Assembly: GCA_004431415.1 (NCBI GenBank) | Contig: QPMI01000396.1 | Span: 49,105 to 113,104 of the forward strand | Direction: 5' to 3' | DNA from: Cyanophora paradoxa CCMP329 | Lineage: Eukaryota > Plantae > Glaucophyta | DNA length: 64,000 nucleotides | Shown here: one piece after another, positions 7,510 through 29,664 of the stretch | Numbering within the stretch: the stretch's first letter is position 1 | How the letters are laid out: each line of letters begins with the position of its first letter | Notes under the pieces: generated by a model | Told to the model about the DNA's origin: nothing | The model's input: only the letters and a program-made list of their open reading frames with translations | The model's database searches: none | Position numbers and translations under genes: made by a program

Positions 7510-7515
7510 GTCGCC
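7510..7515 (+). repeat. Target-site duplication GTCGCC, left copy
   Basis: Identical hexamer directly abuts both element ends; 6 bp is typical of Polinton rve integrases. Confidence 0.92.
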
Positions 7516-8075
7516 TGTTGTATACGCATGGACCTCACACCCGGGCAATTCCGCTTCGCTCCATAGCCCCCGATTCCATGCGTTTCAAGTGTATACCTCC
7601 AGCGTTTCATTAGTTATTTCACCATATACGTCTACCCCACCGATCCAGCTACGTCTACTATCCGATTCCCTAGGTCGAAGCCTAGCAATATCTGACGACT
7701 ATACAAGGCAGAGGAGACAACAAGAATAGGCGAAGAGGAGCGCTGCCCCCATGAGCGCGGTCTGCAGAGCAACGTGGCAGAATAGTCTAGACGATATTAA
7801 TGTGTACAATGAAGCTATCAGAGGAAACACGTTTAGGTTAATTTTAGGCGATAATGAAGTGTACATCGAAGCTAACAGAGGAAGCACGTTTAGGTTAATT
7901 TTAGGCGATATAGATGAGTACGATGAAGCTAACAGAGGAAGCACGTTTAGGTTAATTTTAGGCGAAATGATGAGAACATTGAAGCAACCAGAGGAAAAGC
8001 GTTTAGCTCTATCTAGGCGATAATGATGAGTACATTGAAGCACTTCGTGTCCCAAGAGCGCTCTGGTGCGGCCTC
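7516..8075 (+). repeat. Left terminal inverted repeat (560 bp)
   Basis: Starts TGTTGTATACGCATGG and ends ...GGTGCGGCCTC; reverse complement of 28452-29011 with no mismatch seen by eye. Confidence 0.96.
7811..8040 (+). repeat. About four ~57-bp tandem repeats inside the TIR (mirrored at ~28487-28716)
   Basis: Unit GAAGCTAACAGAGGAAGCACGTTTAGGTTAATTTTAGGCGA...; three close copies and one diverged copy. Confidence 0.9.
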
Positions 8076-8081
8076 ATCCAC

Positions 8082-8414
8082 TTAATCTGGCTGCTTTTCC
8101 GAAACTGGAGTCTTCTCCTTTCTGAAACTTGATAGCAAGGACTTTCTTCTTTTCATTGGCTTCGGGATATCTGGGGGTGGCCACGACAATCTTCGGCCTT
8201 CATCAAGCCAAGGTACAGGTGAATCAGTTCGAGTAAATGGAGAATTGGACCTAGAAGTCCTGGGTGTGTTAATAGGCGATACCTGAGTTTCTGGGGTGCG
8301 AGAGCCCTCAGTGTCCGATATTTCGAGATTAATGGTCGTCTCACAGCAACTACAATTCAATTTGCTGGTGACGTTGAGATGGAACATATCCATACATTTT
8401 CGAAGCAAATCCAT
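8082..8414 (-). CDS. PLV hypothetical protein (110 aa)
   Basis: ATG-initiated ORF, last gene of the minus-strand cassette, ends just inside of the TIR boundary; CSCC motif and basic C-terminus. Confidence 0.6.
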   Translation of the reverse strand: MDLLRKCMDMFHLNVTSKLNCSCCETTINLEISDTEGSRTPETQVSPINTPRTSRSNSPFTRTDSPVPWLDEGRRLSWPPPDIPKPMKRRKSLLSSFRKEKTPVSEKQPD

Positions 8415-8452
8415 CTATTAATGGAAAAATATAAAAAAACAAAGGAATGCGG

Positions 8453-9283
8453 CTATGGAGCCGTATCGCTGCCGAATATAGGAAAATACCTGTTTGTACC
8501 AACATATTCTGCATATGTGTTCTGTTTAGCAATAGCATCGGTTCTTTCAGCATAAAGGATGCATTTGTAGATACCAAACCTGGTTGCTCTCACCAAGAAC
8601 TGGTAGTCTTCAAGGCCGAAATTTACACCATGATAAGCGATCCCGAAATTATCATAAGGAGTTATTACCACCGTAATATTGGGTGTCCCACCTTCAACCT
8701 GGCAGAGAGCGTAGATATCAGGCGGGATGTCAACGACGACCTTATAATGATCACCAATTTCAACCAGAGAATCAACTACTGATGTTTGCTCATTAACAAC
8801 AATGGGGAAAATCTTGATAATATATGGTGCATTCATGCTGGGAACGTAGGTGCGAATACGCGTTAAATTATCAATCGGGTTTGGTTGATCGTTCACAAAG
8901 AGAGGTGCTCCGATAGCTCCACCAACACGAAGACCATCACCAATATATGCGCCGCCATTTCGACAGTTAATAGCTCCAGAACGAGATTCAAAAGAATAAG
9001 TCGAAATAGGATCGCCGTAGCTGTCTGGATCTCCATAATGTGAGCTGAAATTTGCATTCGTAACTAGCAGCTTTGTAGTTTTGACCACGCCATTATTTTT
9101 ATCGCATCTGAGTTCCTGCAATCTCAGTTTATGGGTGGACCCAAAGGTGTTCATCGTAGGCTGAACTTCTGTTGATTCAAGACCTTCTACATCATCAAAA
9201 GTAGCATGCTGCAGAACGTGATTTGCTGGTGCAGATAGTGAGAGCTGTGCCGTAACAATACGCTCTATTGGAATTTCAGCCAT
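8453..9283 (-). CDS. PLV fibre-like protein, paralogue 4 (non-C1q C-terminus)
   Basis: Shared N-terminal block ELRCDKNNGVVKTTKLLVTNAN...GGAYIGDG; C-terminus ends with ...ILYAERTD. Confidence 0.75.
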   Translation of the reverse strand: MAEIPIERIVTAQLSLSAPANHVLQHATFDDVEGLESTEVQPTMNTFGSTHKLRLQELRCDKNNGVVKTTKLLVTNANFSSHYGDPDSYGDPISTYSFESRSGAINCRNGGAYIGDGLRVGGAIGAPLFVNDQPNPIDNLTRIRTYVPSMNAPYIIKIFPIVVNEQTSVVDSLVEIGDHYKVVVDIPPDIYALCQVEGGTPNITVVITPYDNFGIAYHGVNFGLEDYQFLVRATRFGIYKCILYAERTDAIAKQNTYAEYVGTNRYFPIFGSDTAP

Positions 9284-9306
9284 TTTACATTTAAGTAATA
9301 TATAAT

Positions 9307-10161
9307 TTAAGGTGTTGGATCGTCAATAACATCTGGCTCCTGGTAAAATCCGGTTGTAAAGATATCAGCAATATTCACACCACGAAGTGCCGAAACAGCT
9401 GCTATATCTGTTCTCAGTCCCATAATCATAGTATTGTAAACTCCTACCTCAGTGACAAACAAATCATAAGTAAATGTCAAATTGTTATATACACAATATC
9501 CCCGACCGAAATGATTTGATGCTTGAACAAAGAATAGGTAATTGTGACCTGGTTGATTGTTGTTTGCTCTGCACATCGAAAGCATTGCTGTGGGAAGAGG
9601 AATATTCCTTCTCACACGATCAGTTCCTGTAATGGAAACCAACTCTGAATTTTCAAGAGAGACAGATGATGCAACATAGAAGTGAAGAAAAGGTTGCTGT
9701 GCAACAGGTGTATAGAACCGAATTCGTTGTGGATTTTCAACATTTTGTTCAAGGGTATCCGGGACATCATTGTATGCAATCGAAGAAGAGAGTTGACCGG
9801 ACACACGACAACCACCACCAATAAATGCTCCACCTGAACGAATTGTAGCAGCAGCAGAATTCTTGTCGAAATCGAGGGCTTTCAGATCAACACTGTATGC
9901 ATCAGGACCTCCATTTATTGGTTGGAAGAAGTTAGCATTGCTTACGAGTAGTCGAGTTGTTTTAACCACACCTGAGTTCTTGTCAGCTCGAAGTTCTTTA
10001 ACTCGAATCATCGAATTTTTGTCAAAAGAGTTACCATTCGAATTAGGTCTTTCTGTGGATTCTAGACCGCGAACCTCATCATTAACTTCATGCTGGCGAA
10101 AATGCATTGCAGGTGATCCAAGGGAATAGATAGGTAGCTGAACCCGATTATATTCGCCCAT
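9307..10161 (-). CDS. PLV fibre-like protein, paralogue 3 (non-C1q C-terminus)
   Basis: ELRADKNSGVVKTTRLLVSNAN...GGAFIGGG; C-terminus resembles that of 8453..9283 (FG-x-Y...GVY...RTD); start set at ATG 10161. Confidence 0.75.
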   Translation of the reverse strand: MGEYNRVQLPIYSLGSPAMHFRQHEVNDEVRGLESTERPNSNGNSFDKNSMIRVKELRADKNSGVVKTTRLLVSNANFFQPINGGPDAYSVDLKALDFDKNSAAATIRSGGAFIGGGCRVSGQLSSSIAYNDVPDTLEQNVENPQRIRFYTPVAQQPFLHFYVASSVSLENSELVSITGTDRVRRNIPLPTAMLSMCRANNNQPGHNYLFFVQASNHFGRGYCVYNNLTFTYDLFVTEVGVYNTMIMGLRTDIAAVSALRGVNIADIFTTGFYQEPDVIDDPTP

Positions 10162-10199
10162 TGCTTGTTTTACTAAGAAGGAAAGAAAAATAATGTTCA

Positions 10200-10463
10200 C
10201 TACTCTTCTGTGACATTGTTATACTCAATGCCTTTCTTTACAGTTCCCCTTTGGAATGCCTGTGACACAATTGCTTCCTTTGAGGTTGGTATTTGAACTC
10301 CTGCCGAAATGCAAGATTGAATTTCTTTCTGAACAATCTCATCAATTGCAATTCTTGCCCTGTTGTGAACCACATTATCAATCCAATCCTGAACAGAAGC
10401 AGCACAGTATTCCATTCCCAACTTCTCAATATCAGATAGAACGACTTGGTATATATTTGACAT
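10200..10463 (-). CDS. Small helical protein resembling phage tail-fibre-associated hypothetical proteins
   Basis: 87 aa with QDWIDNVVHNRARIAIDEIV, recalled from aquatic phage proteins next to fibre genes; no search run. Confidence 0.7.
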   Translation of the reverse strand: MSNIYQVVLSDIEKLGMEYCAASVQDWIDNVVHNRARIAIDEIVQKEIQSCISAGVQIPTSKEAIVSQAFQRGTVKKGIEYNNVTEE

Positions 10464-10484
10464 CTCTACTTAATAGAGAGAAAA

Positions 10485-11504
10485 TTATGTGATACTTAGA
10501 AGTTCACCTGTGAAAAGTGTTCTACTTGAATAACTACCTGTGGAACCTGTGACAAGTGTTACATACTCACCAGCAGGAACATTGATAATTGCACTGAGAG
10601 TAAGAGGTTTGGTTGTGATAGTGGAATTAGCTTCTACTGAAATGTTAACTCCATTGGGTAAAAGATTATTTTTCAGAAAACTAAGACTTATTGCAGCACT
10701 TGTTGTTGAATTGGTATATGCTGTAAATCTATAATCACCTGCAACAGGAGCTGTAAACCTTCCATTAGTAACATCGAATGACCCTGTATTATTTATCAAA
10801 ACGGTTGTCCAATTGATCAGAGCGGCTGCACTTGTAGCAACATGAGTATATCCAAGTTGAACAGAAAATCGTGGCTGAGAAACATATTTTAAATAGCTTG
10901 AATTCAGAGTCAAACGATTGGCTTCCAGTGTTGCAAAAAGATCACTGTTACGTTTTAACAGCAGATTAACATCTGCTCCTGTATCTATTTCAGGAGTGAC
11001 CACCTTGGTTGATGCTGTTATTATTGATTCTGTGGAATTGGGAATACTAATTCCAGCATTTGCTGTTACCAATCCTGTAAATGTGCTTGTTCCTGTTATG
11101 CTTACTTGATTGGCTGTAAGGGTTCCATCAATCCTTGCCCCATCTCCAATATAAGCGCCTCCACTTCTTACTACAAGAGCTGAGTTATTGATGGTGTTGT
11201 CAAAGGTAACAATCTTTGGTGTGGTGAACCCTCCCACATCATCATAAATTGCTGAATCTGATACAATCTGACCTGATTGAACTTGGTTCTTGTTTGAGAC
11301 TATTAGACCTGTGGTTCTCACCTTGCCTGCATTTCGATCACATCGAATTTCTTTGCATCTGATCACAGAATGTTGAGAGAATGAATCGGCTCCTGTGGTC
11401 TCTGTGCAAATGAAACCTGGGGTAGCATCTGTTACTGTATGGTTGAGTTGATGCAATTTCGGCGCTGCATAACAGAAAACAGGAACAGCTATTTGTGTAG
11501 ACAT
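10485..11504 (-). CDS. PLV fibre-like protein, paralogue 2, C-terminal C1q-like domain
   Basis: EIRCDRNAGKVRTTGLIVSNKN...GGAYIGDG; C1q signature NNTGSFDVTNGRFTAPVAGDYRF...FTGELL. Confidence 0.85.
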   Translation of the reverse strand: MSTQIAVPVFCYAAPKLHQLNHTVTDATPGFICTETTGADSFSQHSVIRCKEIRCDRNAGKVRTTGLIVSNKNQVQSGQIVSDSAIYDDVGGFTTPKIVTFDNTINNSALVVRSGGAYIGDGARIDGTLTANQVSITGTSTFTGLVTANAGISIPNSTESIITASTKVVTPEIDTGADVNLLLKRNSDLFATLEANRLTLNSSYLKYVSQPRFSVQLGYTHVATSAAALINWTTVLINNTGSFDVTNGRFTAPVAGDYRFTAYTNSTTSAAISLSFLKNNLLPNGVNISVEANSTITTKPLTLSAIINVPAGEYVTLVTGSTGSYSSRTLFTGELLSIT

Positions 11505-11526
11505 TCTTTATATTATACAAACAAAA

Positions 11527-12591
11527 TTATATAGCACTTACCAGGTAAACCAACAAGATGTGATTGCTTGGAAAGTCAATACTACCTAACATACAGTAAA
11601 TTTGAAGACTGTCTCCCATGGTGAGGGTAATAAGAGCTTCGTAGCACATCTGATTCCTGCTTGATTGACTTGCATATGAAAGAATCTGATTTGTATTGTT
11701 TCCGTTTATTCTTAGTCCAATCTGGGTCAAGGAGGCAGTTGCAGTATTGTCTTCCGTAATTGTAAAATAGACCCTATAAACTCCTGAAACAGGGGCTGTA
11801 AATGTTGCTGGATACAGTTTGTCAAAATGACCCTCATTATTCACAAGATATGTTCCAACTGGAAAAGGAAGTGTTGGGGTGCCGGAACTAACACTTGTTC
11901 CAAAAATCTGAGCGTTTGCTTGTTGTCCTGAAATACACATTCTTGGGCAATAGCTGCGTTTAAGACCACTGTTTGTTGGAAATGTGATTGCTTTCAGATC
12001 TGTTATTGTCTTTTCGAGAGTGAAAATGATATCTCCGTTTCGTTTATAATTCACATTTGCATCTGTCCCATTATCCATCTCAGGTGCATTAACTCTTGTA
12101 GTAGCTATTCGAGTAACATAGTTAACATCTCCTGAGAGACCACCATTAAAGGTCATCAAACCTGTGAATGAACTTGTCCCATTCACATTCAATTGATTTG
12201 CTGTAACAGTTCCTGCTACATTTGTCCCATCTCCAATGTAGGCACCACCACTCTTCACCACAAGAGCAGAAGTATTGCTTGTGTTACCAAAAGTAATTAT
12301 CTGTGCTGTGGTGAATCCACCCACATTATTATACACTGCTGAATCGGGAACTACTTGTCCTGCTTGAACTTGATTTTTATTCGAGATAATAATTCCTGTG
12401 GTTCTTATCTTGCCTCCATTTCGATCACATCGAATCTCTTTGACTCTGAGTATATTATTCTCTGTGAAAGACGTATTGCTTGAAGCTTCAGTGCATATAT
12501 TCCCGGGTGTAGAGTCGACTACTTCATGAGAGGTGCTGTGTAGTGATTTCGCGGCAAGTTCATAGTTTGGGATTTCTAAAAGGGAGGTCAT
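11527..12591 (-). CDS. PLV fibre-like protein, paralogue 1, C-terminal C1q-like domain
   Basis: EIRCDRNGGKIRTTGIIISNKN...GGAYIGDG; NNEGHFD...FTAPVSGVYRVYF...LTMGDSLQIY; start set at ATG 12591. Confidence 0.85.
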   Translation of the reverse strand: MTSLLEIPNYELAAKSLHSTSHEVVDSTPGNICTEASSNTSFTENNILRVKEIRCDRNGGKIRTTGIIISNKNQVQAGQVVPDSAVYNNVGGFTTAQIITFGNTSNTSALVVKSGGAYIGDGTNVAGTVTANQLNVNGTSSFTGLMTFNGGLSGDVNYVTRIATTRVNAPEMDNGTDANVNYKRNGDIIFTLEKTITDLKAITFPTNSGLKRSYCPRMCISGQQANAQIFGTSVSSGTPTLPFPVGTYLVNNEGHFDKLYPATFTAPVSGVYRVYFTITEDNTATASLTQIGLRINGNNTNQILSYASQSSRNQMCYEALITLTMGDSLQIYCMLGSIDFPSNHILLVYLVSAI

Positions 12592-12610
12592 CTTTATAAT
12601 TACGAAATAG

Positions 12611-15600
12611 TTAAATTGCGACAGCAATGTAATGGATTGTTACAGTAATGCCTGGTCTGTCAAAAGAACTTAATGGAACTATTTCGAGCTCACACGTGAA
12701 ATAGCTACTGTAAACTTGTTTAAGCCTAACATACATGCGGTAGTAGTAGGCTGTCTCATTGTGTTGTATACCGGTTGTTACAATAGGAGGGTTAGCAAAG
12801 CTGGTGTTGAAATAAATAGTGAGATTAAACCTATGGTCAGGGTTTGCCCATAGATAAGGAGTAGTGTAAGCATACGTCCCTGCTTGAAGCTTTCCATTAA
12901 AATATGCATTGAATTGACTGGAAAGATCTGCCTCTGTAATACATCGACTGATGGTCGCATTATTTGAGGGGTTCATAGCATAGAAATTTCTTGCATAGGC
13001 ATTTCCACGAACAAGTAAGGTTTTATCAAAGTAATTCTGCGAATTGTGGAAGAACCATGTTTCTTCAAACATAGGTCCTGCTGGTTCTACAATCTGACCT
13101 GATCCTACATACATTGTGTTGTTGGCTCTGATGGTGTTGGCTGTAAAGGGATCAAGAGTTGGTCTATTGGTCAGGTCATTGTAGTTGCCCGAAAATAAAG
13201 CGGGTTTGTTATAGATATCTGTATTCCAATCATGAGTATGTGCAAAATCTGTAATATCTGCTTTGACATGAGTATGTGCAAAATCTGTAATCTCACTCTT
13301 TACATGGGTGTGTGCAAAATCTGTTATCTCTGATTTAACATGAGTGTGGGCGAAATCTGTTATCTGTGACTTTGTGTGAGTGTGTGCAAAATCTGTGATC
13401 TCAGATTTAAAATGAGTATGGGCGAAATTTGTAATATCTGCTCTGGTGTGGGTGTGAGCAAAATCTGTTATCTGTGCTTTTGTGTGAGTGTGTGCGAAAT
13501 CTGTGATCTCTGCTTTTGTGTGGGTATGTGCCCTGTTATTCAGATCAAGGAAGCTTCCCGAGAATGCTACTGGGTGCAGATTTGCAGCAGTAGGTTTGTT
13601 TAGAAGATCATTATAGTCTCCTGTGAAAGAGATGGTTTTCAGTTCACCCCTTCCTACATAATCAGAAGGTAGGTCAATCTTAATGGGCATAATAGCTGGA
13701 TCAATAGGAATCTCGTACTCAGCTCCTGGGTGAACCACAGGAAAGGTTTGATCACTTTCAGTGTGAACAAAAAAGTTGTCAGCAGTCACTGTTCCATCAA
13801 TAGTCCCTCCTGTCAAGGGCAGGTAATTCCCAGTCACAGCTAGACCTGCAATAACTAAAGCGAGCTCTGTTTGATCTACATAGTTTTGTGCTTGAAGGTA
13901 ATCCTCTGTGACCACTCTGGATATAGTGTCATTGTGAATGTTTTTTGCTGCTGCCCTTTGATTGATTTCTAAAAGTCCCTCCCCAACTCCACCATTATAG
14001 TTTGTTTTGATCCAAGATATTTCACATCTCTTGTAATCATCTCTAATTCCTATGAGAGCATTAGGTAACAATCTTTCTCGAGTGAATATTAATTTCGGTC
14101 TTGATGAATCTAAATCACTCACATCAGTAACATTAATTTGAATTGCTGCATCTTTATCATCATAGTTTGCTGGATCAGATGGAAGCGATAATATTAAACT
14201 ATCTGTCATTGGGATGTCATCAGCATAGTAACTGGTTAAATAGATACCTGGTTTGGTGTCCATCAACCCGAAGTTTCCGCCTGCTGCGATTATCTGCATC
14301 CGTGTAGGAGGTCTGATGAATAGCTCACCCTCCATTGTGGTTCCTGCATCAATTCCTTTACGATTCAGGTAAAATTCACTTAATCGTAATCTTTCTTCGA
14401 TGTTAATATTTGGTAGAGACTCACACCATTTATCCCATCATTCATAACATTACCTGCTGATGCAAAAGTAGGCTGTAAATCGATTTCGTCCCAATTATGC
14501 CTATGGTCTTCCGGCGGAAACTCAGGTGGAATTCCATCAATATCGCCCCAATCATGCCTGTGATCTTCAGGTGGATATTTCTCAGGTTTACCTAAGATCT
14601 CATCCCAGTCATGGTTGTGATCCTCTGGTGGATATCTCGCTGGTTTGTTGTTGATTTGTTCCCAGTCAAGGTACATCTCGAAAATCTCAGGTTGTAAACC
14701 ATCTGGCAATAATTCCTCATGGTGTTCATAAGGCTGCGCGTACTCAACAGCAGGAGGCTCGAGACCATCTGCTAAATATTCCTCATGGGTTCATAATTCT
14801 GTTCATACTCATACTCTTGTGGATCTAAACCGTCGGGTAAATACTCTTCCTCATTTGGGTCGTATTGATCATACTCATACTCTTGCGGGTCGAAACCGTC
14901 AGGTAAAAACTCTTCCTCATCTGGGACAAATTGGTAATCATCAAGCTCTAATATATCGATTTCAGGAGGTAAATACTGTTCATCTATTTGTTTTTTCGGT
15001 TCGAAGATAGGTTTATTGCGAACTTGCTCCCAACTGACAATATGTTGACCGAAAGGAACTGTCTCATCAGCAACTCGCTCTCGACCAGGTCCATCCGGGA
15101 TTGGCGGCTTTGGTAACCCTGGAAGAGGTGGTATAGGGACAATAGGTCCGAAGTAGTAGTTGAAAATGTTGATAACCTGCTCTTCGGTGCTAACCTTCTT
15201 ACCATCCTGATAAATATTAGTTCCATGAATATTTCTCCACTGCCTGGTGCGAAGCCCTAGGTCATATCTATCATGCAATGCTGGGAGCAGGTGCCTGTCA
15301 GCCTCAATCAAGATAGAGCCGAAGGTGCATCCAGGAATATCGAACCTGGTGGCTGGCTCGGTATCGATTTGATTTACATCAAACCCGAAAAGAAGATTTG
15401 CTTCTCGTGCATCGGTATATAGTAAATCCCAGGGGAACGGCTGAATTTGTGATGCAAGCACTGATATTGCAGCATCTTCGCCAAGGAGAATTCGCCCAGT
15501 GATGTGAGCTGCAGTTTTGTTTGCGACATCATTTGATTCATCAATTAGACGTAGAGCTGATGTGTGGACCCCTCTATCATTTTGTAGCCTAAATATCAAT

Positions 15601-15914
15601 CTACCGGAATCATACTTGGAGACTGTGCCTGAGGAGGCAATGCGAAGGTGTCGTGGCAACGCCCTGGACCCAATAATTTCAGCAACAAAGTTCTCAGTGG
15701 GACCAAGACAGAATCTCTGTGCAATATCCGGGGCACCAACGTGGGAGTTCCGCAGAATTAATGCAGCTGGTCGACTAAACTCGGTCCTGTGGATGTCACG
15801 ATCAGCATTGAAGTCTGCCAAGATGCTTCCGAAAACGCGAATATTTATGAGTCGATCATCAACGAAATCTGGAGATCTACGAAGTGGCACTGGCTTCTTC
15901 AAGATGTAGGACAT
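12611..15914 (-). CDS. Long fibre/tail-like protein (~1100 aa), split into three ORFs by two apparent frameshifts (~14788, ~14435)
   Basis: Acidic PDG(L/F)DPQEYEY repeats continue across the first frameshift; H(N/R)HDW repeats; YLPLTGGT; eight AHTHxK(S/A)xITDF-type phage-tail repeats; (T/S)G(D/N)YNDL-x-N(K/R)P motifs; C-terminus resembles H-type lectin/gp53-like domain (FNTSFANPPIV...IHYIAVA). Confidence 0.8.
13229..13530 (-). repeat. 36-bp coding tandem repeat (AHTHxKxxITDF, 8 full copies plus a partial)
   Basis: Directly visible in the DNA and in the translation of ORF 12611..14335. Confidence 0.9.
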
Positions 15915-15936
15915 TTTATATAAGCCCCTTTTAAAA

Positions 15937-17421: not shown

Positions 17422-17682
17422 GCGGCGGCATGAATGCCCAGGAAATCAGAGAGAGTCCAAGACGTGTTGGAATAGTTCTGCCAGATTTATCTTTCTCCCA
17501 AAATGGTGCTCCATTACGCCCTCCCAGTCGCCTCTTAATGTAATTCTCTCTTCGCTGATACCAAGTTTGGGCGCCGCCGAGGCTGTGCGGAGCCAAGAAG
17601 GCGAAAGCCAAGATGGGCATTCTTGCCCTTCGGGCTCCTTGCCTTCGGCTTGTCTGCGACCCTTCGGCTTGTCTGCGACTTT

Positions 17683-18602: not shown

Positions 18603-18629
18603 TTTTATTCTCTAACTGATATAAAAAAG

Positions 18630-19585
18630 ATGCCGACGGACTACGTCTGCATTGCAAGCCACCAAGCGGATGAGCTGACATCCACCTCAAAATTTAAAGT
18701 AAGACTGCCTAAAGTTTATCAGGATGTAAAAGCCGTGCGCCTGGTATCTGCTGAGATCCCCAACACAATGAGCACAGTTGATGCACTCGATCCAGCAGAG
18801 GATTTAGTGTTTGACACGTATATATATTGGTGCAAATATGATCCTGCAAATGAGGGACCAGACCCACATCAGCCAGGTTTTGGAGCCTGGAATAACATTA
18901 CAATTCCACCTGGAAATTACGACGTCACCTCGCTTGTGACAAAGATAAACGAAAGGTTGACGGGGACTGGTATCACGTGCACGTATAATTCAGCAGTTAA
19001 ATCAATAGGGTTCACAGCTAGCTTCGAGTTCTTTATTGCTCTGATGTTGGCACCGAACCTGGGTGGCGGGAAATCAGAAACTACCAGGCTGTTGCTAGGG
19101 CTCAGCGAACTGCAAAGCTGCTAGGCTTGCGATCAATTCTACCGATTCGGTCTAAGGCTTTAACTGTCGATATTCAATATATAGAAGGCGCTTATGAACC
19201 CGATGTCACTCCCGATGATCATGTGCTACTTCGCATTCCTGAAATTGGTGACCTTGTCAGTATGCCCAATACTTCAATTCCTGGCTTTTTCTCAAAGCTC
19301 AGCATTCCCAGCGCCCTCCGTCCAGGCGAAACAGCCTACTATGATTCAACTGAAGCAACTCCTTTGTATAAGTATGTTTATTCAAAGCTGGACCTGTACT
19401 CTGTGACTATTGAGATATACGATTTTATGCAGCGAATCGCTGATTTAAATGGAGCTCCTGTGTCATTTATTCTCGAAATTCGTTATGGTCCTGACGAACC
19501 CAATGGTGATGTTGTTTACGAACTTGCAAAACTTCAGCTCCAGAAAAGGTCAAAGACATATCCTTGGATCAATTCGTCAAACTGA
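18630..19585 (+). CDS. Minor capsid (penton-like) protein B, one apparent frameshift at ~19033
   Basis: FKVRLP...VKAVRLVSAEIPNT, ITIPPGNY, AKLLG, VLLRIPEI, VTIEIYD...DLNGAPVSFILEI; frames join with one extra T. Confidence 0.85.
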
Positions 19586-19687
19586 GCTAAGCTCGCGGCA
19601 CGCAAGCGAAGTCGCAGACAAGCAGCTCGGCTGCGCCCCTTGGCGAAGCGGCAGAATTATTTTCTTTCACTGCAATTATATAATTCG

Positions 19688-21076
19688 ATGGATGTCACTC
19701 AAAATTTGCAGCGGCTCGGCCTCAAAGAGCTCCTGACAACTCCGCAGGAAGCGAAGGACTTCTTTATGAACAATGAGCTTATGTTGGGTCTAACGAGCCA
19801 AACCAAGCCTGTTCGTGTTGTTGTCAACCCAAGCAATGACTATGGAGACTGCTTCGGTAAACGAGTCACCTACTTCCTTCCCAGATACAACTTCCTTCAG
19901 GGGCTCGAACTCCAGTTTACCCTTCCCGAGCTGACAGCTTTTACTGGTGACACTGACCTGGTTCGCACTGGTTATTTGCGATCGGTTGGTGCTCTCGTAA
20001 AGCGAATCGAAATCAAATATGCTTCCTACAGCTACATTGTCCCCGAGGACTGGCTTGTTCACAGCGCTCTGATTTTCAATGATGATGCTCAGCTCAAAAA
20101 GAAATACCGGTCAGGTGGCTGGCTACATGGAACACCACCGCAGGGGACAAATCGCACTGGAGGTATTTTCAGTGTAAAAATCCCCTGTCCCTGGGAGGGT
20201 TCTGTGCTTCCGATTGGTGCTCTATCTGGCGAGGTTTCCGTCGAGGTTTGGTTCCGTGATCGTGCCCAGGGCTTCGTCGAAACCAGCTATGGTGGTAGGT
20301 TTGTAACAGAATATGCCATAGGCGGTGATGCTTCTAAAGAAGATGGCCTTGGTAGTGTTGGAGCCGCTGCTGCTTCCCCTGCAAACATCGGCCAGAATAT
20401 AACTCCCAATGTTCTCAGTGTCACCCCTGCCAATCCGGAGCTTTCGAATCCAAAGATTATTGCTCATTGCATCAACGTTGATGAGGCCACTTTTGCCCAG
20501 GTGATTGAGAAAGTCAAAACGTCTGGAATCGCAATTCCCGCTACCGATGTCGGCTGGGTTGATGCTGATTCAATTACTTATGCTGGTGCTGGTGCGCCCA
20601 CCCGAATTAATCTGTCTCAAATCAGTGGACTTTGTTACGGCCTATTCGTTAGCATTCGCAAGCAGCCAAACATGAACCAAACTGATGGAAAACACAGTGT
20701 CCTCAAAACCGAGGCTAATGCTCGCGATATTACTATTTCCTGCGAATTGAATGGACAGCGGCTTTATTCAAATGAGCCTGTTCCTCTATTGCAAGGTGCT
20801 GAACTCATCGCTGATGTCTTCAAGTGCTCCAATCTCGACGCACCCCTTAATCGGTATGTTCTGACTGGATTGCCATTTTGCATTAGTGGGGATAAATCGA
20901 TTCGAAATGCTGCTCAAACTGGTTTCGTAGATCTGACGAACTCCAGCAGCTGCTTCCTGAATATCATGAACCCTGCTGCGTATGATGCTAACAACAAGAT
21001 TTACGTCCAAATTCGCGCTCTCCTTCACACTGTCCTAATTGTTGATGCTGCGGGACTGCGGAAAGTTAATCTCTAG
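19688..21076 (+). CDS. Major capsid protein (double jelly-roll)
   Basis: ~460 aa; N-terminal FGKRVTYFLPRYNFLQGLELQFTLPEL matches the DJR-MCP pattern; LPIGAL..EVSVEVWF; lies between mCP and ATPase. Confidence 0.85.
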   Translation: MDVTQNLQRLGLKELLTTPQEAKDFFMNNELMLGLTSQTKPVRVVVNPSNDYGDCFGKRVTYFLPRYNFLQGLELQFTLPELTAFTGDTDLVRTGYLRSVGALVKRIEIKYASYSYIVPEDWLVHSALIFNDDAQLKKKYRSGGWLHGTPPQGTNRTGGIFSVKIPCPWEGSVLPIGALSGEVSVEVWFRDRAQGFVETSYGGRFVTEYAIGGDASKEDGLGSVGAAAASPANIGQNITPNVLSVTPANPELSNPKIIAHCINVDEATFAQVIEKVKTSGIAIPATDVGWVDADSITYAGAGAPTRINLSQISGLCYGLFVSIRKQPNMNQTDGKHSVLKTEANARDITISCELNGQRLYSNEPVPLLQGAELIADVFKCSNLDAPLNRYVLTGLPFCISGDKSIRNAAQTGFVDLTNSSSCFLNIMNPAAYDANNKIYVQIRALLHTVLIVDAAGLRKVNL

Positions 21077-21214
21077 TCACAGTGTCGCCAGACAAGCTGA
21101 CTCGCCTGCGGTCGCGGTTGTGTTTGCCTGCGAATATCAATAGTTGGGCGCAGCCGAGGCAGTGCGGAGCCAAGAAGGCTCCTTGCCTTCGGCTTGTCTG
21201 ACGACTATTTTTTG

Positions 21215-21961
21215 ATGGATGAGTCTCAAGAGCTCGCAAAGTTCCAGCCTAGCGATATGAGGGTCCCTTTTAAAGCCCTGTTTATATCGAAATCTAATAG
21301 TGGCAAATCGTTCTATTGCACAAAGCATCTGCTTCGACTGCTATATCCAAAGATTAATCGAGTGGTTGTGTTTACGGCCACCAAATTCAATGGTGAATAC
21401 GAAGCAATAACAAAAGAGCTTTACGATGATTTTCAACCTGCCATTGTTGCAGAAATCATTGATTCACAGCGCGCTCTAATCGAAAACAAAAAGAAAGCGC
21501 CGCAGATATTACTTGTATTGGACGATCTTGTTGCTGCATCTGAAACTGTTGATCTTCGAAACAGCAAGGTTGTTAATCGACTTTTTATGCAGTGCCGCCA
21601 TTTTTGCATTTCTACGATTTTAATGTCGCAAAAACTAACAGCTCTTAGTCAATCGATTCGTTCTAATGCTGATTATTGTTTTTTCTTTAGCTATTCTAAT
21701 CACACAGAGCTTGAGGCTATCTATCGAGAGTTTAGTCATCTCCCGAAAGACGAATTTATTGCTTTGTTCCAAACTTGGGCTCACGATTATCAGTGCCTAG
21801 TCCTTGATGGGACCAAATACGATACGGCCTGGTTCGTTGACAAGGCAGTTGAAGATAAGAGTTTTCGTTTTACGAAGTGGGTTAAGAATGAACCTGAAGA
21901 ACGTAAGAAAGAAGAATCACCTGTTATCTCTAAAAAGAAGCATTTTAAAATCTTAGCTTAA
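21215..21961 (+). CDS. A32/FtsK-HerA-family genome packaging ATPase
   Basis: Walker A variant SKSNSGKS, Walker B LLVLDD, RH motif, SQ, IRSNADY. Confidence 0.92.
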   Translation: MDESQELAKFQPSDMRVPFKALFISKSNSGKSFYCTKHLLRLLYPKINRVVVFTATKFNGEYEAITKELYDDFQPAIVAEIIDSQRALIENKKKAPQILLVLDDLVAASETVDLRNSKVVNRLFMQCRHFCISTILMSQKLTALSQSIRSNADYCFFFSYSNHTELEAIYREFSHLPKDEFIALFQTWAHDYQCLVLDGTKYDTAWFVDKAVEDKSFRFTKWVKNEPEERKKEESPVISKKKHFKILA

Positions 21962-21970
21962 TAAAATAAG

Positions 21971-22609
21971 ATGGGTCGCGGCATTCCAAAGAAGGGATAT
22001 CGTGAACGACGCAAGGTTAATATATCTGAGCCCAATGCTCCACTGATTGAAAGTGGGTCAACTGAAGGCGCAGCTGTTGCTGATCCTAGCGGGGAGCTTG
22101 CAAGCAACCCCAAACTAAACGCACCCGTAGCGAAAACAATTGCGTCGGCAGCAGCTAACGCAAGTGCGATTGACGATCGACAAAGCCAGGCTAAAACTGT
22201 TACTGAAATGCAGTCCGATATTGATGATGATGCTGCTAGAATTATCCAAGCAATGGCATCTGAACCACGTTATTCAGGGCCAAAAATCAAGACAGCAACA
22301 GTATCAAAGAGTCAGATCGAGGAACTAACAGCTAAATTGCGAGATCTTGAGGCTCGATCAGCTAATATCGAATCGTATGTAAAAGACAAGCAAGAAAGAG
22401 CTAAGATCCGTGAGATGCTCCGTAGCGAGATGTTTAAACATAGACCCATGGATGTACCAGATTTACGCTTTCTGAAAAACGAAAAAGAGAAGGCTTCACA
22501 AGCTCTTGATGATGCAGCTGTAAAGCCAGCTACACCCAATGTTTCTGAAGCCAATTCAACGAGCTCACAGATTAAGGGAGCGATGGGTGGGAGAAGGATT
22601 CGTCTGTGA
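21971..22609 (+). CDS. PLV hypothetical protein (212 aa), basic N-terminus and coiled coil
   Basis: ATG ORF 9 bp after the ATPase stop; MGRGIPKKGYRERRK; heptad-like segment. Confidence 0.7.
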   Translation: MGRGIPKKGYRERRKVNISEPNAPLIESGSTEGAAVADPSGELASNPKLNAPVAKTIASAAANASAIDDRQSQAKTVTEMQSDIDDDAARIIQAMASEPRYSGPKIKTATVSKSQIEELTAKLRDLEARSANIESYVKDKQERAKIREMLRSEMFKHRPMDVPDLRFLKNEKEKASQALDDAAVKPATPNVSEANSTSSQIKGAMGGRRIRL

Positions 22610-23183
22610 CACATCGATCAACAGTATTTGCATCCACACACTTGGAACATCCACATTTGTGTTTCATTTCATCCATTTTCGCTAATACCCAGACATGCCT
22701 TCCATTTTTCATGATTTTCTTTAGATTTGGCACCCAATACCACACGATAAATCTGAACTTCAGCCACGGCGTAGATGGATTGCACTGGTTACAGTTCCAA
22801 ACTACTTTTTCACTGTATTGCATCAGCTCTTGCTGAGGTATCCAACTCGTAAATTCATTGCACTTCGCACACTTCAAACGTGCTTCTCGGACAATTGAAA
22901 TCTTATCAAAGCATCCGTATTCCTGCTTCTCTCTCGTTTCCCCTGCATATGAGGTTATAATCTTGTCAAACTGCTTTTCAAAACATTCGTGACACTTGTT
23001 GTTATTTCGATTCCACATTGCTTCATTTTCACAGACATCATTGCAATCTCTGCAAAGAATAGAGCGAACACGTCTGCGCACCTCACAAACTTCCTCATCA
23101 CTAGACTCTGTGGCCTCCCTATAATCTGAAGTGCTAAAGAGACCTCTTGGAGCAAGTGTGCCGAAATAGTTGTGTCCTCCCAT
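22572..23183 (-). CDS. PLV Cys-rich hypothetical protein (putative Zn-binding)
   Basis: Five CxxC pairs (CRDC, CHEC, CAKC, CNQC, CSKC) in 203 aa. Confidence 0.65.
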   Translation of the reverse strand: MGGHNYFGTLAPRGLFSTSDYREATESSDEEVCEVRRRVRSILCRDCNDVCENEAMWNRNNNKCHECFEKQFDKIITSYAGETREKQEYGCFDKISIVREARLKCAKCNEFTSWIPQQELMQYSEKVVWNCNQCNPSTPWLKFRFIVWYWVPNLKKIMKNGRHVWVLAKMDEMKHKCGCSKCVDANTVDRCVTDESFSHPSLP

Positions 23184-23242
23184 TGTCTTTCACTTTTTAC
23201 AATATCGGATTGATATTTCTTTAAGACTTGCAAACGCATTGC

Positions 23243-23521
23243 CTAATCGAAATCAGGCAAATCTGTTAGATCCTCCACAGTAGGTCTTCTTTGCTGTTTT
23301 GCTCGATCAATCCTTTCCTGAACTACCGCTGGTTCTTCTAATTGACATATCTCAAAAGCGCGCTGCAATTCACGTTTGTCATACTCTCGCAGATGCGGCA
23401 AAGACAATAACCATTCAGCATATTTTGGGTCGCTAAAAACTACTTTAAGATGAGTTTCACCTTTATATTTTCCAAATCGAATTGTTCCTGCGGCGCAGCG
23501 ACGCTGCTTGTCTGCGGGCAT
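23243..23521 (-). CDS. Small protein with FGKYKG...Y-x-x-WL domain (DUF3820/ExoX C-terminal-like)
   Basis: IRFGKYKGETHLKVVFSDPKYAEWLL; start uncertain, ATG 23521 chosen. Confidence 0.7.
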   Translation of the reverse strand: MPADKQRRCAAGTIRFGKYKGETHLKVVFSDPKYAEWLLSLPHLREYDKRELQRAFEICQLEEPAVVQERIDRAKQQRRPTVEDLTDLPDFD

Positions 23522-23630
23522 TATTTGAATCATATCTCGGATTTTATGTTCGGAATTTAACGCAACACAAACCTGCGATTTATGCCATAAAAAGATTTCG
23601 TACCTTGTTTGTGACGAGAAAACCAAAGAA

Positions 23631-23906
23631 ATGGATGTTGAATCATCAACTAAACAGCGTGGTCGCAAACCAATTGTTGTTACCCCTGAAATTGCTGCTG
23701 CACGAAAGGCAAAGCGTGCAGAGAGCCATCGCCGTCGTTACAATGAAGATCCGGAATTTCGCCGACGACACATAGAAACCAGCTCAAGATACCAGCAGAA
23801 CAACAGCGAGAATCATTTAGAGGCCAATCGCCGCTATCGCAATCGAATCTACGAAAAGTTAGCACTGCTAGAGTCCCTCCAACAATGTGTTGTTATAGCT
23901 CTTTGA
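23631..23906 (+). CDS. Small basic helical protein, putative DNA-binding
   Basis: KQRGRKP followed by an Arg-rich helix (RRRYNEDPEFRRRH). Confidence 0.65.
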   Translation: MDVESSTKQRGRKPIVVTPEIAAARKAKRAESHRRRYNEDPEFRRRHIETSSRYQQNNSENHLEANRRYRNRIYEKLALLESLQQCVVIAL

Positions 23907-25028
23907 CTAGCCTTCTGGTCTTTGTTCTCTCTAATATTCCACCAGGGTTTAACTTGACAGTTCCAGCTGTCGCAAGTTGCTTTTGAAGGCGAAGCAGCTT
24001 CTTATTTTTTTCTATGTCCACTCGATCTAAATTCTCTCGCATCAGATTTAGCTCCTTCTTTCTGCGCTGCTGTGACCGCTGTGCTGCATTTCCCGCACGA
24101 CGTTCCTCTGAATCTACTGGGACCTTTAAAAGTTGCTGGTAGGTCACTGGTGTATCCGATCCAGCGAGTTTAAATCTTAGAAGGGGTCCAAAACCCCAAT
24201 CGACTCAATTCGAAATACTTCTTTCGAGAAGGTTGGCTTTGTCGATTTATCGAAGGTTCTCCTGGTTAGCTTAACTCGAACTAGGTCTCCTACTTTAAAT
24301 TCGACCTCCTTCAGGTAGTGTTGCTGCTCGTAGATCTCTCGCTGATAATCGTTGCGCGCGATTGTCTCCTTCGGATTCTCTGCTGCAGCGTTTGGCGATG
24401 TACCAATCGACCTATGCTCTGACGAATTATAATTGCGCAAGAAAGCGGGCAGCTTGTCGATGTACCTATCCGTGTCATATGCCTCCATATACCGTGCAAT
24501 AACTCGCTTCAAAGTTCCATTAAATCTTTCTATTTTGCCGTTTGCTTGTGGTCGATGCGCTTCCACAGCATTGTGCTTAATTCCCTCAGCTTCTAACAAA
24601 CTACCAGCTGAAGCTTTAAACTCCTGATCTGTCTGAATAATATCCGGCTTGGCTGGAAAACTATCTATGAGTTTCCGTAGTGTTGAAAGGAGTGTACTTT
24701 CGCTCTTGTTCTTCATTGGAATGCTGTAGGCTTTCCGAGTCACTACGTCCACTGCGTTCATTATAAAGTGAATACCGCGGTTTGTTCTAGCGTACGGAGT
24801 CACGTCGATTAGGTCCACCTCGTAGTATTTCTCTGCTTTGTCGTATGTTATACTTGTGAATGGTTTCTCTTTTTGCGGCCTCGCAAATCTTTGCGCTGTC
24901 GATAATTTCTCCAGCACTTCTCTAACCCTGGAAACTGGTATTTTCAACTTCTTGGCAATACGTGTGGCAGACTGAAGCCCTATTTCTGGATCATAGTATG
25001 CCTCCTGAATTTTGGCTGATGTACTCAT
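23893..25028 (-). CDS. Retroviral-type (rve, DDE) integrase, one apparent frameshift at ~24195
   Basis: YYDP, VDLID, QTDQEF, GKIERFNGTLK, YNSSEHRSIGTSP, FKVGDLVRV; C-terminus continues RFKL...YQQLLKV after adding one G. Confidence 0.93.
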
Positions 25029-28000
25029 GAGGAACTGTGCTGTAATAGTCATCCGAAATTATCTTTCGCTTTGTGTATTCCGTCTTATTTAATACTCTGC
25101 TGAATGGAATCTGAATGATTGAACTAAAACCTATCCCCTCCTCGCGTTGCTTTCCATTCGGTTTGAAGACACGAGATAGTTTAGACTCTATTTTGCACTC
25201 CGGCTGATACCGGCTCTCAAGCATCTGCTTGAACGCTTCCAAAGCAACCCGAGAATGGAGGTGCCCCTTCCTCATCTCCGGATCATTCGAAAGCCAGTTC
25301 TCTTCGATCCAGCTTTTTGGTATTCCTTTGGCACGCACATGCACGTCCGATTCACCGTTCGCTTTCACGTACCGACAACAGTACACCTTGGGCCCAACGA
25401 AATACGCCTCCACAATGTGTCCCTGGATATCGTAATCTAGTTTTCCAAGTTCGCTCTCGCAGATCACCCTGTTCGCCTCCTCTTCGCCCATTCCTCCACA
25501 GAGTAGGGCCGCTTCATGCAATCAGTCACCAGCTCTGCAAATTTCCTGTGCACAACAAGAGAGTCCGTGTCCGTGTAAAACGGCATGGCTTCGATGTCTT
25601 TATAAGAGTTCATCTTTACTAGGAACCTGTCCATTATCTCGCGACTGTAGGACAGAATAAATGCTCCAATAAAACAGGGCTTCGACACACAAGCATCACG
25701 TTTGCTCTCAGGTACTTCATATGTCACATACATCCGTGTTTCACTCTCAATTTCGATGTCTGTAATCGTAGACGTCCGCTGTAGCTCCTTAAATCGGCGG
25801 TAATTAGAAACTAGCTCTGTTGTTTCGATCACAGGCCTCTGGGCAAATTTTCCGTAAAGACCATTTAATTGAATCTTTGCTGTTGCGTACTGAGCTGTGC
25901 CCTTCCTTGAACGAGCTTTCATACAGTATAACTTCTCGATGTAATCTTTAAACATTCTCTCCTTGCCTTCAAATAAATACACCTCGTGAACTTCTGTTAT
26001 TTCCACCCAAGCGCTATCGCCCTGTAGATATCAACCGATGTATACATCTCGCGCTCGATCGGTTTCAGGTTCGACCAGCCCAAATTCGACTCGTGACGAG
26101 GTAGCGGAGAAAGCACAAGGTCCTGAGGAATTTTCGCACTGATGCTCGCAATGAACAGTTGCTCCATTTTTCGACTTAACATGAACTTTCTAAAACGTTC
26201 TAATGCCTCCGGTTCATTGATTAGCTTAAATTTACCTGTAGGAAACTGGTTAAAGTACATAGCGGTTGGATATAGAGAGACCACATCCAGATCTACCAAG
26301 TAATCATCTGGACCCTTCGAGACAAACTTGCGTTTGAATGGTAAACAGCGACCTCCGTAAATCGCCCTGCGAAACACCTGATCTTCACTATACTTCGGAA
26401 GTTGCAGCTCTGTCTTCAACAGCTGCCGGTAAATCTGAAAAGCCATTGATGAAGCTGTAAGTGTTTGTTTGGAATTCACATTTATTCCAAATAGATCAAA
26501 GCTCGTACTCGAATATTTCATGTATAGCTCCGTCATCGATCGCACGTCGGCTCTAAGATATTCTCCCCATTCCTCCTTGTGTGTCTCAACGTCTGCCCAC
26601 GTCTTGATCTTGCGATGGTCAAAGTCTCCTTTGATTGTCGTGCAGCCGTAGTCCTTTCCAGCCTGTTTTAGTGAACCTTGAATATGTAGGCACGGGTCAA
26701 AACTCGTCAACTCTCCTCCTGCTGACGTCTTCCATTTCATACTCTTAATCTTGCCCGAGGAGCGCATGACGTTCACCTGGCTTTCTGGCCGATTCTCAAT
26801 CAGCCATCGGTATATGAATATCAGATCAAAACCAGCACCGTTGTAAAATACTACTGTGGTCTTCTCTGCCCAAGCATCCAGCCATTGCATGAATTGATTT
26901 AATGTTTCAGGACCGTAAAACATCTTGGTTCCTACAATTTCGCCCTTGCATATTATGTCTGTGTCAACAGCATAAGGAACGTGGGTCTTGCCATCACAAG
27001 GAAATGTTTCAAAGTCAGCCCCTATCACGCTATCCATCGCTGTAAATTCACTCTCCTTTTCGCAAGGAGTAATCTTTCTTCCAATAACACCTTTGTTTCT
27101 GATGGCGGCAACGCATTTGTTTGTGTGATCTTCAATTGGATTGTAGGCGCAACGACATCTAGCACAAAACTGACAGGTTAGCTTGTGTCTTTCCAGTTCG
27201 AACTGCATTTTCCCGCAGGCACTACACTTCTCCATCTCAGTCGTTCTTTTATCCTTAATCAGGTAGCAGTGCACATCGACTATACAAAGGTGAGCACGTT
27301 TTTCAAATCCTAGATCGGTCGCAAAAGCAGCTTAAACTTTCCTTGCGAAAACTCAAAAACGCTGGTGTCTATTCTGTAAAAAGCGCTCAGCTTATTAATC
27401 GTTGGCACATCAACTGATATCATTCCTCGCCGCAGTCCTAGCTGTGTTCTAATCCCTCCGTAGTCCAGTCTCTGAAGTTGCTTGTAAATTCGATCAAGGC
27501 TTATTCTTCCAGGGTTTAGCTTCACATATTCAAAACACTCAAGCACACAGTTGTCTTCTGGTGAAATCGGACAGTAGATCTTATTCATGGTCAGGGCTTT
27601 GCCATTGAATGGGAGTTTCGGTACGTTTCCAAGTGCGCCTGCAGCGTTCTCTGCAATGAGCACCTCTATTTTCACTACTGGCCAAAGGTCGTTGTCTTCA
27701 TATGGCTGCTGCGCTAGCATCCATTGTTCCATCTTTTCAGCCAGATTTGACAAGAGCGACTGCATTGTGCCCTCTTCGATTGTTGCTAGTTGAGTGCGAT
27801 ACATGCGAAAGTTATCGAAATGAAACCGAATTAGGACGCTTGATCCTATTTTCTCTGGAATTCGCAGCTCTCTCAGAAACTCAATCGTGATCTCTTTAAC
27901 CCGCTCAGGTATTGGAGTCGGATCAATATCCAAAATATCCTTGGTAAATAACAACCCGGATATGCATAGTGAGTATAATTTAACACGGTATCACCTCGAC

Positions 28001-28313
28001 CTGTCTCGCGAAATAAATTCGAGATCCCATACTCTACAATTTCATCAAACTCTCGCGTGGCTTCAATTCGAGCATTGCGTTCGTTCTCAAAATGACTTGT
28101 TATCCATGACTGGTACAAAGGGCGCTGCGGCCGGTTCGTCTGTCTAAGTCTAAGCAATGTTGAAAGATTAGCTCGAAGATTTTGTGTGTGGGTTCCCCTC
28201 TGTGGGTCTGCTAGTCGCATCAGTGTGTTCAAATATGTTCCGTTAATGTACCTAAGATTGTGTAGCTCCTGCGCTAGACTCCGAATTTCAGCTCTCAGAT
28301 TGTTCCTGTCCAT
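24991..28313 (-). CDS. polB: Protein-primed family B DNA polymerase with N-terminal terminal-protein/vOTU-like region; five ORFs separated by four apparent frameshifts
   Basis: ExoI ADFET, ExoII YNGAGFD, ExoIII YLRADV, YGGRC, motif A DVVSLYPTAM, motif B KIQLNGLYGKFAQ, motif C YTDTDS, PKVY, KGI. Confidence 0.94.
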
Positions 28314-28451
28314 TATGAATAGGTCTCTACAATATTGGATGGCCGAAAACTTTTTGGGATTTAATCGCAGACAATCTCTGATTGCTAGTATGTATGCGAG
28401 AAACCTTTAAGCCACATAACTGGCGTCCGCAAAGTCATCGACTCCTCTCCA

Positions 28452-29011
28452 GAGGCCGCACCAGAGCGCTCTTGGGACACGAAGTGCTTCAATGTACTCA
28501 TCATTATCGCCTAGATAGAGCTAAACGCTTTTCCTCTGGTTGCTTCAATGTTCTCATCATTTCGCCTAAAATTAACCTAAACGTGCTTCCTCTGTTAGCT
28601 TCATCGTACTCATCTATATCGCCTAAAATTAACCTAAACGTGCTTCCTCTGTTAGCTTCGATGTACACTTCATTATCGCCTAAAATTAACCTAAACGTGT
28701 TTCCTCTGATAGCTTCATTGTACACATTAATATCGTCTAGACTATTCTGCCACGTTGCTCTGCAGACCGCGCTCATGGGGGCAGCGCTCCTCTTCGCCTA
28801 TTCTTGTTGTCTCCTCTGCCTTGTATAGTCGTCAGATATTGCTAGGCTTCGACCTAGGGAATCGGATAGTAGACGTAGCTGGATCGGTGGGGTAGACGTA
28901 TATGGTGAAATAACTAATGAAACGCTGGAGGTATACACTTGAAACGCATGGAATCGGGGGCTATGGAGCGAAGCGGAATTGCCCGGGTGTGAGGTCCATG
29001 CGTATACAACA
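28452..29011 (-). repeat. Right terminal inverted repeat (560 bp)
   Basis: GAGGCCGCACC...CCATGCGTATACAACA; the same 90-aa ORF translation appears at 7751..8023(+) and 28504..28776(-). Confidence 0.96.
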
Positions 29012-29017
29012 GTCGCC
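29012..29017 (+). repeat. Target-site duplication GTCGCC, right copy
   Basis: Follows ...ACAACA immediately. Confidence 0.92.
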
Positions 29018-29658: not shown

Positions 29659-29664
29659 GTCTTA

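Follow-up and report, generated by a model that had tools for sequence, protein, structure and literature searches.

A probably recent and intact Polinton-like virus inserted in a high-copy repeat of the glaucophyte Cyanophora paradoxa

Introduction

Is the virus-like element on contig QPMI01000396.1 of Cyanophora paradoxa CCMP329 an intact provirus, or is it a dead copy with broken genes? The window, that is, the whole stretch of 64,000 nucleotides analysed here, carries at positions 7516-29011 a Polinton-like virus (PLV), which a preliminary description took for a complete and young insertion, possibly representing a distinct lineage. The further proposal that this copy may still make virions depends on eight coding breaks being assembly errors. 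The analysis described here indicates that the element is probably a recent, intact PLV copy within a high-copy host repeat, that its eight breaks are likely one-base assembly errors, and that it belongs to a subfamily of near-identical elements.

Results

Termini and insertion site

The element is delimited by terminal inverted repeats (TIRs) and a target-site duplication (TSD), and is located inside a host repeat. The features are as follows, with positions on the window.

7516-29011: PLV element, 21,496 bp, GC content 0.436
7510-7515, + strand: left TSD, GTCGCC (from the sequence, and from the empty site in contigs)
7516-8075, + strand: left TIR, 560 bp, beginning with TGTTG; the 57-bp repeats lie at 7788-8041
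28452-29011, - strand: right TIR, 560 bp, ending with CA on the + strand
29012-29017, + strand: right TSD, GTCGCC (from the sequence)
6977-7509, no strand assigned: host high-copy repeat, portion left of the insertion; depth mostly 15,000-43,000, versus 92.5 for the unique flank, in run X1
29018-29887, no strand assigned: host high-copy repeat, portion right of the insertion; 29407-29658 repeats 6977-7240 at 92.8%, and the portion terminates in two 113-bp copies

Direct comparison of both TIRs gave identity at 560 of 560 positions, and the 6-bp TSD is intact, both as claimed at the outset. Each TIR carries 4.5 copies of a 57-bp repeat. Size and termini agree with those of PLVs (14-40 kb, TIRs and, for rve types, a TSD of 5-6 bp), while the GC content differs from that of the host, which is about 0.70 in the majority of host bins past 30 kb of the window. 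An empty site with a single GTCGCC was detected in all four public sequencing runs, in which loose contig ends at 29012 continue as the left flank; in run X12 it is also visible as loose ends at 7515. A unique host contig enters the repeat at 6499-7012 without any difference from the window. The depth of this unique flank contig was 92.5 (X1), 47.9 (X12) and 24 (X2), versus tens of thousands for the repeat that served as target. With identical TIRs, the TSD, and a nearest major capsid protein (MCP) that comes from C. paradoxa (see below), the young PLV insertion in a glaucophyte-like host was borne out: the element is genuine, and the insertion is likely young.

The host repeat contains a direct repeat of about 260 bp (92.8% identity), the copies of which are spaced by about 930 bp when the site is empty. 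It starts abruptly at 6977 and has a 113-bp duplicated tail, and its depth at the insertion site is hundreds of times that of the unique flank. No Rfam match was found for 6977-7515 and 29012-29887; the repeat may be a non-autonomous retroelement or a satellite.

Genes of the element and their breaks

A total of 19 genes, with breaks read through, span 95% of the element interior. They are listed below, with MCP for the major capsid protein, mCP for the minor (penton) protein, PTR for phage-tail repeat, ORF for open reading frame and pPolB for protein-primed DNA polymerase B.

8082-8414, - strand: 110-aa ORF; no family match
8453-9283, - strand: spike/fibre paralogue 1, 276 aa; common N-terminal part of about 125 aa; predicted homotrimer
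9307-10161, - strand: spike/fibre paralogue 2, 284 aa; 34% identity to paralogue 1; no family match
10200-10460, - strand: 86-aa ORF
10485-11504, - strand: spike/fibre paralogue 3, 339 aa, with C-terminal C1q (PF00386, E 1.7e-8)
11527-12591, - strand: spike/fibre paralogue 4, 354 aa, with C-terminal C1q (PF00386, E 9.4e-6)
12611-14335, - strand: fibre with PTRs (36-bp tandem array) and an H-lectin tip, 574 aa (PF12789, E 1.3e-5; PF09458, E 8e-4; both under the curated cut-offs)
14380-15914, - strand: sixth fibre-like gene, about 511 aa, with one split near 14786; C-terminal phage tail-like repeats; PHROG tail/virion matches to E 7e-10
15937-17421, + strand: patatin-like phospholipase, 494 aa
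17683-18602, - strand: penton (mCP) candidate 2, about 306 aa, with one split near 18289; named from end motifs that we presume to be penton-type, with no database match
18627-19585, + strand: penton (mCP) candidate 1, about 319 aa, with one split near 19064; directly upstream of MCP
19688-21076, + strand: MCP; nearest protein P0001; double-jelly-roll model
21215-21961, + strand: A32-like packaging ATPase, 248 aa, unbroken
21971-22609, + strand: 212-aa ORF; weak family matches only
22572-23183, - strand: Cys-rich accessory ORF, 203 aa; skipped in some family members
23243-23533, - strand: ExoX-like_C (FGKYKG) ORF, 96 aa
23631-23906, + strand: basic ORF, 91 aa
23893-25052, - strand: rve integrase, about 386 aa, with one split near 24193
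24991-28313, - strand: pPolB, about 1108 aa if read through, in five ORFs; breaks near 27954, 27322, 26005 and about 25500

The full gene set claimed for the element is thus represented by pPolB, rve, MCP and ATPase, but it is not intact as written, for five genes are broken: pPolB has four breaks, and there is one each in the integrase, the two penton candidates and the 15914-14380 gene. In the given sequence the integrase frame is cut off before its C-terminus, at about 24193. Every span with a single split would need one more base to make up whole codons, and the pPolB span fits a loss of four bases.

Short-read (Logan) contigs of the four public runs, three of which are DNA runs, were compared with the window over 13600-29700; such contigs lose rare variants. 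Among the sites listed, one extra base was present in all three DNA runs at 14786, 18289, 19064, 24193, 26005, 27322 and 27954, and likewise at the intergenic positions 15913 and 15924. The share of the extra base in X1 was 100% of the local depth at seven of these nine sites, and about 63-65% at 27322 and 27954. The remaining pPolB break (about 25500) is crossed by one X12 contig with one extra base and no substitution. All nine listed sites are located in homopolymer runs (about 1e-7 under random placement), and six listed X1 contigs across 22663-28196 showed no substitution in 2,201 bases. Further listed differences are a minor pair of compensating changes at 17812/17818 and, in the host repeat, an insertion of 3 bases. 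Run X21, guessed to be RNA, gave few pieces of the element interior, at a depth of 3-4, and was not used as evidence. Long-read artefacts of this kind have been described for PLV assemblies in the available text of Bellas 2023 (PMC10120064). Since the contigs carry one extra base per break, nearly all in homopolymers, an assembly error of one base is the likely cause of each of the eight coding breaks.

The breaks could instead mean that the insertion is real and young but the copy is dead, with private one-base deletions in pPolB, integrase and pentons, and is mobile or packaged only by means of intact sister copies. This is improbable. The eight breaks do stand in the sequence as given, and contigs lose rare alleles, some letters of the window being found in no listed contig. 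Natural decay is expected to bring substitutions first. Long-read consensus error fits better than decay because the losses are one-way, of one base and in homopolymers, the replication-module contigs listed above are free of substitutions, and the TIRs are identical. Moreover, all listed full-share indels are one-base homopolymer losses, two of them intergenic, and in-frame stops were absent. The common direction of all shifts would also suit programmed frameshifting by the ribosome, or edited sites, with a regulatory role in an otherwise functional provirus, but the extra base is carried by DNA contigs of sister copies, two sites are intergenic, and relatives encode pPolB in one ORF, so that this explanation is hardly credible. 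Introns were rejected as the cause of the splits, because overlapping frames and a difference of a single base in the contigs, with no stretch skipped, do not suit them.

Sister copies of the element

Relative to the unique flank, the contig depth in X1 and X12 was 7-10-fold for pPolB and integrase, 2-4-fold for 22663-23420 and 18-20-fold for penton candidate 2, while the relative depth in X2 was about twice these values where measured; contig depth is a rough guide and not a copy number. It suggests a handful, roughly 4-8, of near-identical sister copies, and the capsid module, as read from depth, appears to be more widely shared among the copies than the replication module. In sister copies the spacers on both sides of MCP (19586-19655 and 21076-21207) are replaced, and one form, seen as a joint in X1, skips 22609-23334 and lacks the Cys-rich 203-aa ORF. 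The variation points to modular exchange within the family. The element is a member of a small near-identical subfamily inside a large and already catalogued PLV population of Cyanophora.

A family of this kind raises the question of whether the window itself is a blended or chimeric assembly of near-identical sisters at one site, in which case the gene order would be representative but the exact genome would not exist. The family is multi-copy, with module-wise uneven depth and alternative spacers, both flanks lie inside the very high-copy repeat, and false consensus in such loci is described in the available part of Bellas 2023 (PMC10120064). In contrast, the 6-bp duplication is exact and agrees with the empty site in the reads, a coincidence to be expected from a random misjoin in about 2-5 of 10,000 cases, and the unique host contig that extends into the repeat (6499-7012) shows no difference from the window. 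A chimera is thus quite improbable.

Several observations weigh against the interpretation of the element as one intact copy with breaks arising from assembly. Among the contigs listed for the four runs, none spans a junction with 31 bases to either side, which is also to be expected of a chimera. Some substitutions of the window in the capsid/fibre half (for example 18208, 20140 and 20635) are absent from all listed contigs, and the window may represent a private variant or a blend of sisters. Private deletions in one copy would look alike in contigs that lose rare variants, and real slippage also prefers homopolymers. With respect to the capsid genes, the recognition value of MCP was 1838 against a guide of 2300, a score that is weak by itself, and neither the PDB sequence search of the penton pieces nor the family scans gave significant support for the pentons.

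Replication and integration genes and absence of an adenain protease

The Pfam search of 26 ORFs identified PF03175 on two pieces of pPolB (E 3e-38 and 7e-14). Read across the four breaks, the vOTU-like Cys/His, exonuclease and polymerase motifs are arranged in the order of the Polinton polymerase, and the single-ORF relatives of 1059-1086 aa are collinear across the downstream pPolB pieces. The integrase gave an rve match (E 2e-7), with PF13683 above and PF00665 just below the cut-off, and has the D-D-E motifs. Catalytic motifs are present in integrase, patatin, ATPase and pPolB.

No match to adenain/Ulp1 was found by Pfam or PHROG in the 26 ORFs, several small ones of which carry no assignment, nor did a scan of six frames detect the motif that we take to be adenain-like; the claim that the element has no adenain protease was upheld by both. 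The chaperone PF13884 and PF02675 gave no match in the element ORFs either.

A quick pPolB tree of 12 rows, most of them unnamed and none a named reference, had long branches and placed the element in no starred group. Locus scans of viral contigs detected two distant loci with the pPolB alignment, and none with a pPolB piece or the MCP alignment. None of the 445 pattern matches in metagenome contigs carried the MCP pair.

Capsid module

The double-jelly-roll fold, by the failure of which the viral assignment would have fallen, was found for the product of 19688-21076 by a structure model, structural search and language-model features. The model from a 6-row alignment (pLDDT 58.9, pTM 0.62) resembles the capsids of PBCV-1 and iridovirus (E about 2e-17, TM about 0.6). 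The best matches in BFVD are capsids of nucleocytoplasmic large DNA viruses (NCLDV; E 1e-19), and virophage capsids rank lower (E 8e-12); with this ranking and no protease found, the element does not have the MCP and cysteine protease of virophages (Maveriviricetes). NCLDV capsids may top these lists because PLV capsids are scarce in the libraries, and the ranking is no classification of the MCP. The language-model features were also closest to the clusters Capsid_N/Capsid_NCLDV (0.98). The single-sequence AlphaFold model was unusable (pLDDT 31.8), and neither Pfam nor a sequence search of PDB gave a significant match to MCP.

Among 7,992 scored candidates, the homologue search for MCP gave a single match, the C. 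paradoxa protein P0001, with 64% identity over the full length. A profile search of 1.84 billion representatives gave eight matches at E up to 0.001; five were aligned with MCP, while P0013, P0014 and P0016 were left out as long, partial, multi-stretch matches. The packaging ATPase was identified by PF04665 (E 9.9e-9, above the cut-off) and Walker motifs. The two penton candidates are weakly suggested by position, size (read-through lengths of about 306 and 319 aa), the presumed penton-type end motifs and, for candidate 1, the sole family match (DUF5901, E 0.015). The homologue search with the N-terminal part of candidate 1 gave none among 211 candidates, and the penton pieces showed no convincing match to each other or to the penton candidate of the environmental locus L001.

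Spikes, fibres and patatin

The number of spike/fibre-like genes was six rather than five as described before: four paralogues, the PTR-H-lectin gene and the tail-repeat gene. The four adjacent paralogues (8453-12591) share the N-terminal part of about 125 aa, with 22-34% identity to the first, and two of them end in C1q. Modelled as three copies, paralogue 1 scored 0.84 against 0.00 for the best control; the runs agreed in at least 70% of contacts at pLDDT of at least 55, with the interface centred on residues 92-158. Of the known self-pairs, 21 of 30 in the microbial calibration set and 17 of 29 in the eukaryotic set attained this mark, as against 0 of 23 and 0 of 30 single chains; the calibration used two copies, not three, the custom alignment was unused, and a pass may reflect memory of solved fibres. 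The prediction supports trimeric spikes. The patatin was confirmed by PF01734 (E 1.6e-26) and the motifs GGGARG, GTSTG and DGA, while its C-terminal domain had no Pfam match.

Intergenic regions and other parts of the window

The genes of the divergent pairs at 15914-15937 and 18602-18627 start only about 22-25 bp apart, with AT-rich spacers, and the arrangement suggests very compact bidirectional promoters. A 19-bp motif is repeated twice in tandem after penton candidate 2 (17642-17679), with a near copy shortly before the ATPase gene (about 21187-21205); it is possibly a regulatory element. Rfam and tRNA scans gave no matches. A bacterial promoter scan found no promoter-like site, the bacterial model being irrelevant to this host.

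Outside the element, the host DNA carries intron-broken genes, such as an acetolactate synthase-like (TPP enzyme) gene at 52857-55341 (about 53-55 kb), which is interrupted by short C-rich introns and likely has an N-terminal targeting peptide. A tandem array occupies 61360-64000; its units of about 478 bp are each apparently made of two related halves of about 240 bp, without Rfam or tRNA match.

Discussion

By analogy with related systems, the life cycle of the element may be outlined as follows. A linear genome would have been inserted by the rve integrase, which linked its TG..CA ends to host DNA with a stagger of 6 bp. The linear form would be copied from the TIRs by pPolB, with its terminal protein (TP), vOTU, exonuclease and polymerase parts, and packaged by the A32 ATPase into a double-jelly-roll capsid closed by pentons. 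The capsid would mature without an adenain-type protease. Spikes, as trimers tipped with C1q, lectin and phage-tail parts, might bind to the cell surface or to a helper virus, and the patatin lipase might aid membrane entry, a role proposed in the available text of Bulzu 2025 (PMC12220804).

This copy may produce virions if its eight coding breaks are assembly errors, a condition that the short-read contigs favour. A bolder proposal, which we regard as rather doubtful, is that about 4-8 near-identical intact copies are still amplifying in this culturable glaucophyte, and release virions with six spikes, four of them paralogous trimers with swapped tips, and two pentons. If true, glaucophytes would thereby have their first virus particle, and the maturation of a protease-less PLV capsid, with the helper or trigger that it needs, could be studied in a tractable system. 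The search of literature titles, with subscription papers outside its coverage, found no glaucophyte virus isolate, and the available part of a 2018 review of 65 cultured algal viruses (Coy 2018) makes no mention of glaucophytes. Knowledge of most protist PLVs is limited to tabulated counts, while here a complete genome with pPolB and rve is at hand, the apparent decay of which is likely an artefact, in a young subfamily of an alga likely grown in the laboratory. Whether endogenous glaucophyte PLVs form particles, alone or with a giant virus, is directly testable, and the element is a good candidate for seeking virions.

Comparison with known systems

Animal Polintons/Mavericks (Polintoviricetes; adintoviruses) are similar to the element in pPolB and rve, TIRs, 6-bp TSD, MCP, ATPase and, by the penton candidates, mCP, but the element is without adenain/Ulp1, has patatin in place of PLA2, and its MCP best matches NCLDV capsids. 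Animal Polintons end with AG..CT. The ends of the element, TGTTG..CA, follow the TGTNR pattern of Gypsy/Ginger as given in the available text of Bao 2010. The vOTU protease domain of Polinton pPolB, described in the accessible part of Krupovic 2024, is matched by a vOTU-like Cys/His pair in the window pPolB. The element would work like a Polinton but falls outside the canonical Polintoviricetes with respect to the protease. The layout is indeed non-canonical in lacking adenain and carrying patatin, as the preliminary description had noted, but the right comparison is with protist PLVs, in which the lack of protease is usual according to the available text of Bulzu 2025 (PMC12220804).

Further relatives are the environmental pPolB-PLVs L001 and L002 (IMG/VR) and the proteins P0002, P0003, P0011 and P0012. 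Among them, pPolB identity to the window is 28-38%, while P0011 (35%) and P0012 (22%) are MCPs that fall into one broad group with that of the window. L001 has, like the window, the FGKYKG ORF beside pPolB, but the MCP and ATPase candidates of L001 and L002 show no BLAST similarity to those of the window, and no integrase was recognised by eye in their listed ORFs. In both L001 and L002 the small FGKYKG ORF directly follows pPolB, and a GHSLGG lipase is also encoded.

Elements with PolB and integrase in C. paradoxa contigs were already noted in the available part of Starrett 2021. Table S2 of Bellas 2023 (PMC10120064) lists 366 MCP genes of C. paradoxa in two clusters (272 and 94), made at 25% identity over 30% of the length. 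By name and visible sequence, P0001 is the 456-aa MCP listed there (HHpred 98.5% to iridovirus MCP), and the full-length identity of 64% to this representative places the element in that capsid group, of which the available parts of the study describe no gene-by-gene layout for the present subfamily. Table S6 of Bulzu 2025 (PMC12220804), with its columns assigned by position, includes 156 complete TIR-bounded glaucophyte PLVs, of which none has a protease, 85 have rve, 49 PF03175 pPolB, 89 lipase, 97 mCP and 139 A32. The available parts of the same study name one PTR-PTR-H-lectin fibre of C. paradoxa, and report discoidin domains, some fused to patatin, in 11 glaucophyte PLVs. Some glaucophyte PLVs there carry the PF13884 chaperone or PF02675, unlike the element of the window. 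These parts are silent on C1q-tipped paralogous spikes and on two pentons per genome, and C1q has no match in supplement 2. The main text of two PLV-classification preprints of 2026 is without mention of Cyanophora or glaucophytes in the available portions, and the exact MCP, ATPase, patatin and fibre sequences of the window were not in the protein collection searched.

The proposal of a distinct lineage was largely anticipated by the C. paradoxa capsid group of 2023 and the glaucophyte PLV gene tables of 2025, as far as the available parts of these sources go. The element is a young member of a known but unnamed group, and not a new kind of element; what the present analysis adds is that its breaks are likely artefacts, that it belongs to a small near-identical subfamily, and that it carries an array of paralogous spikes.

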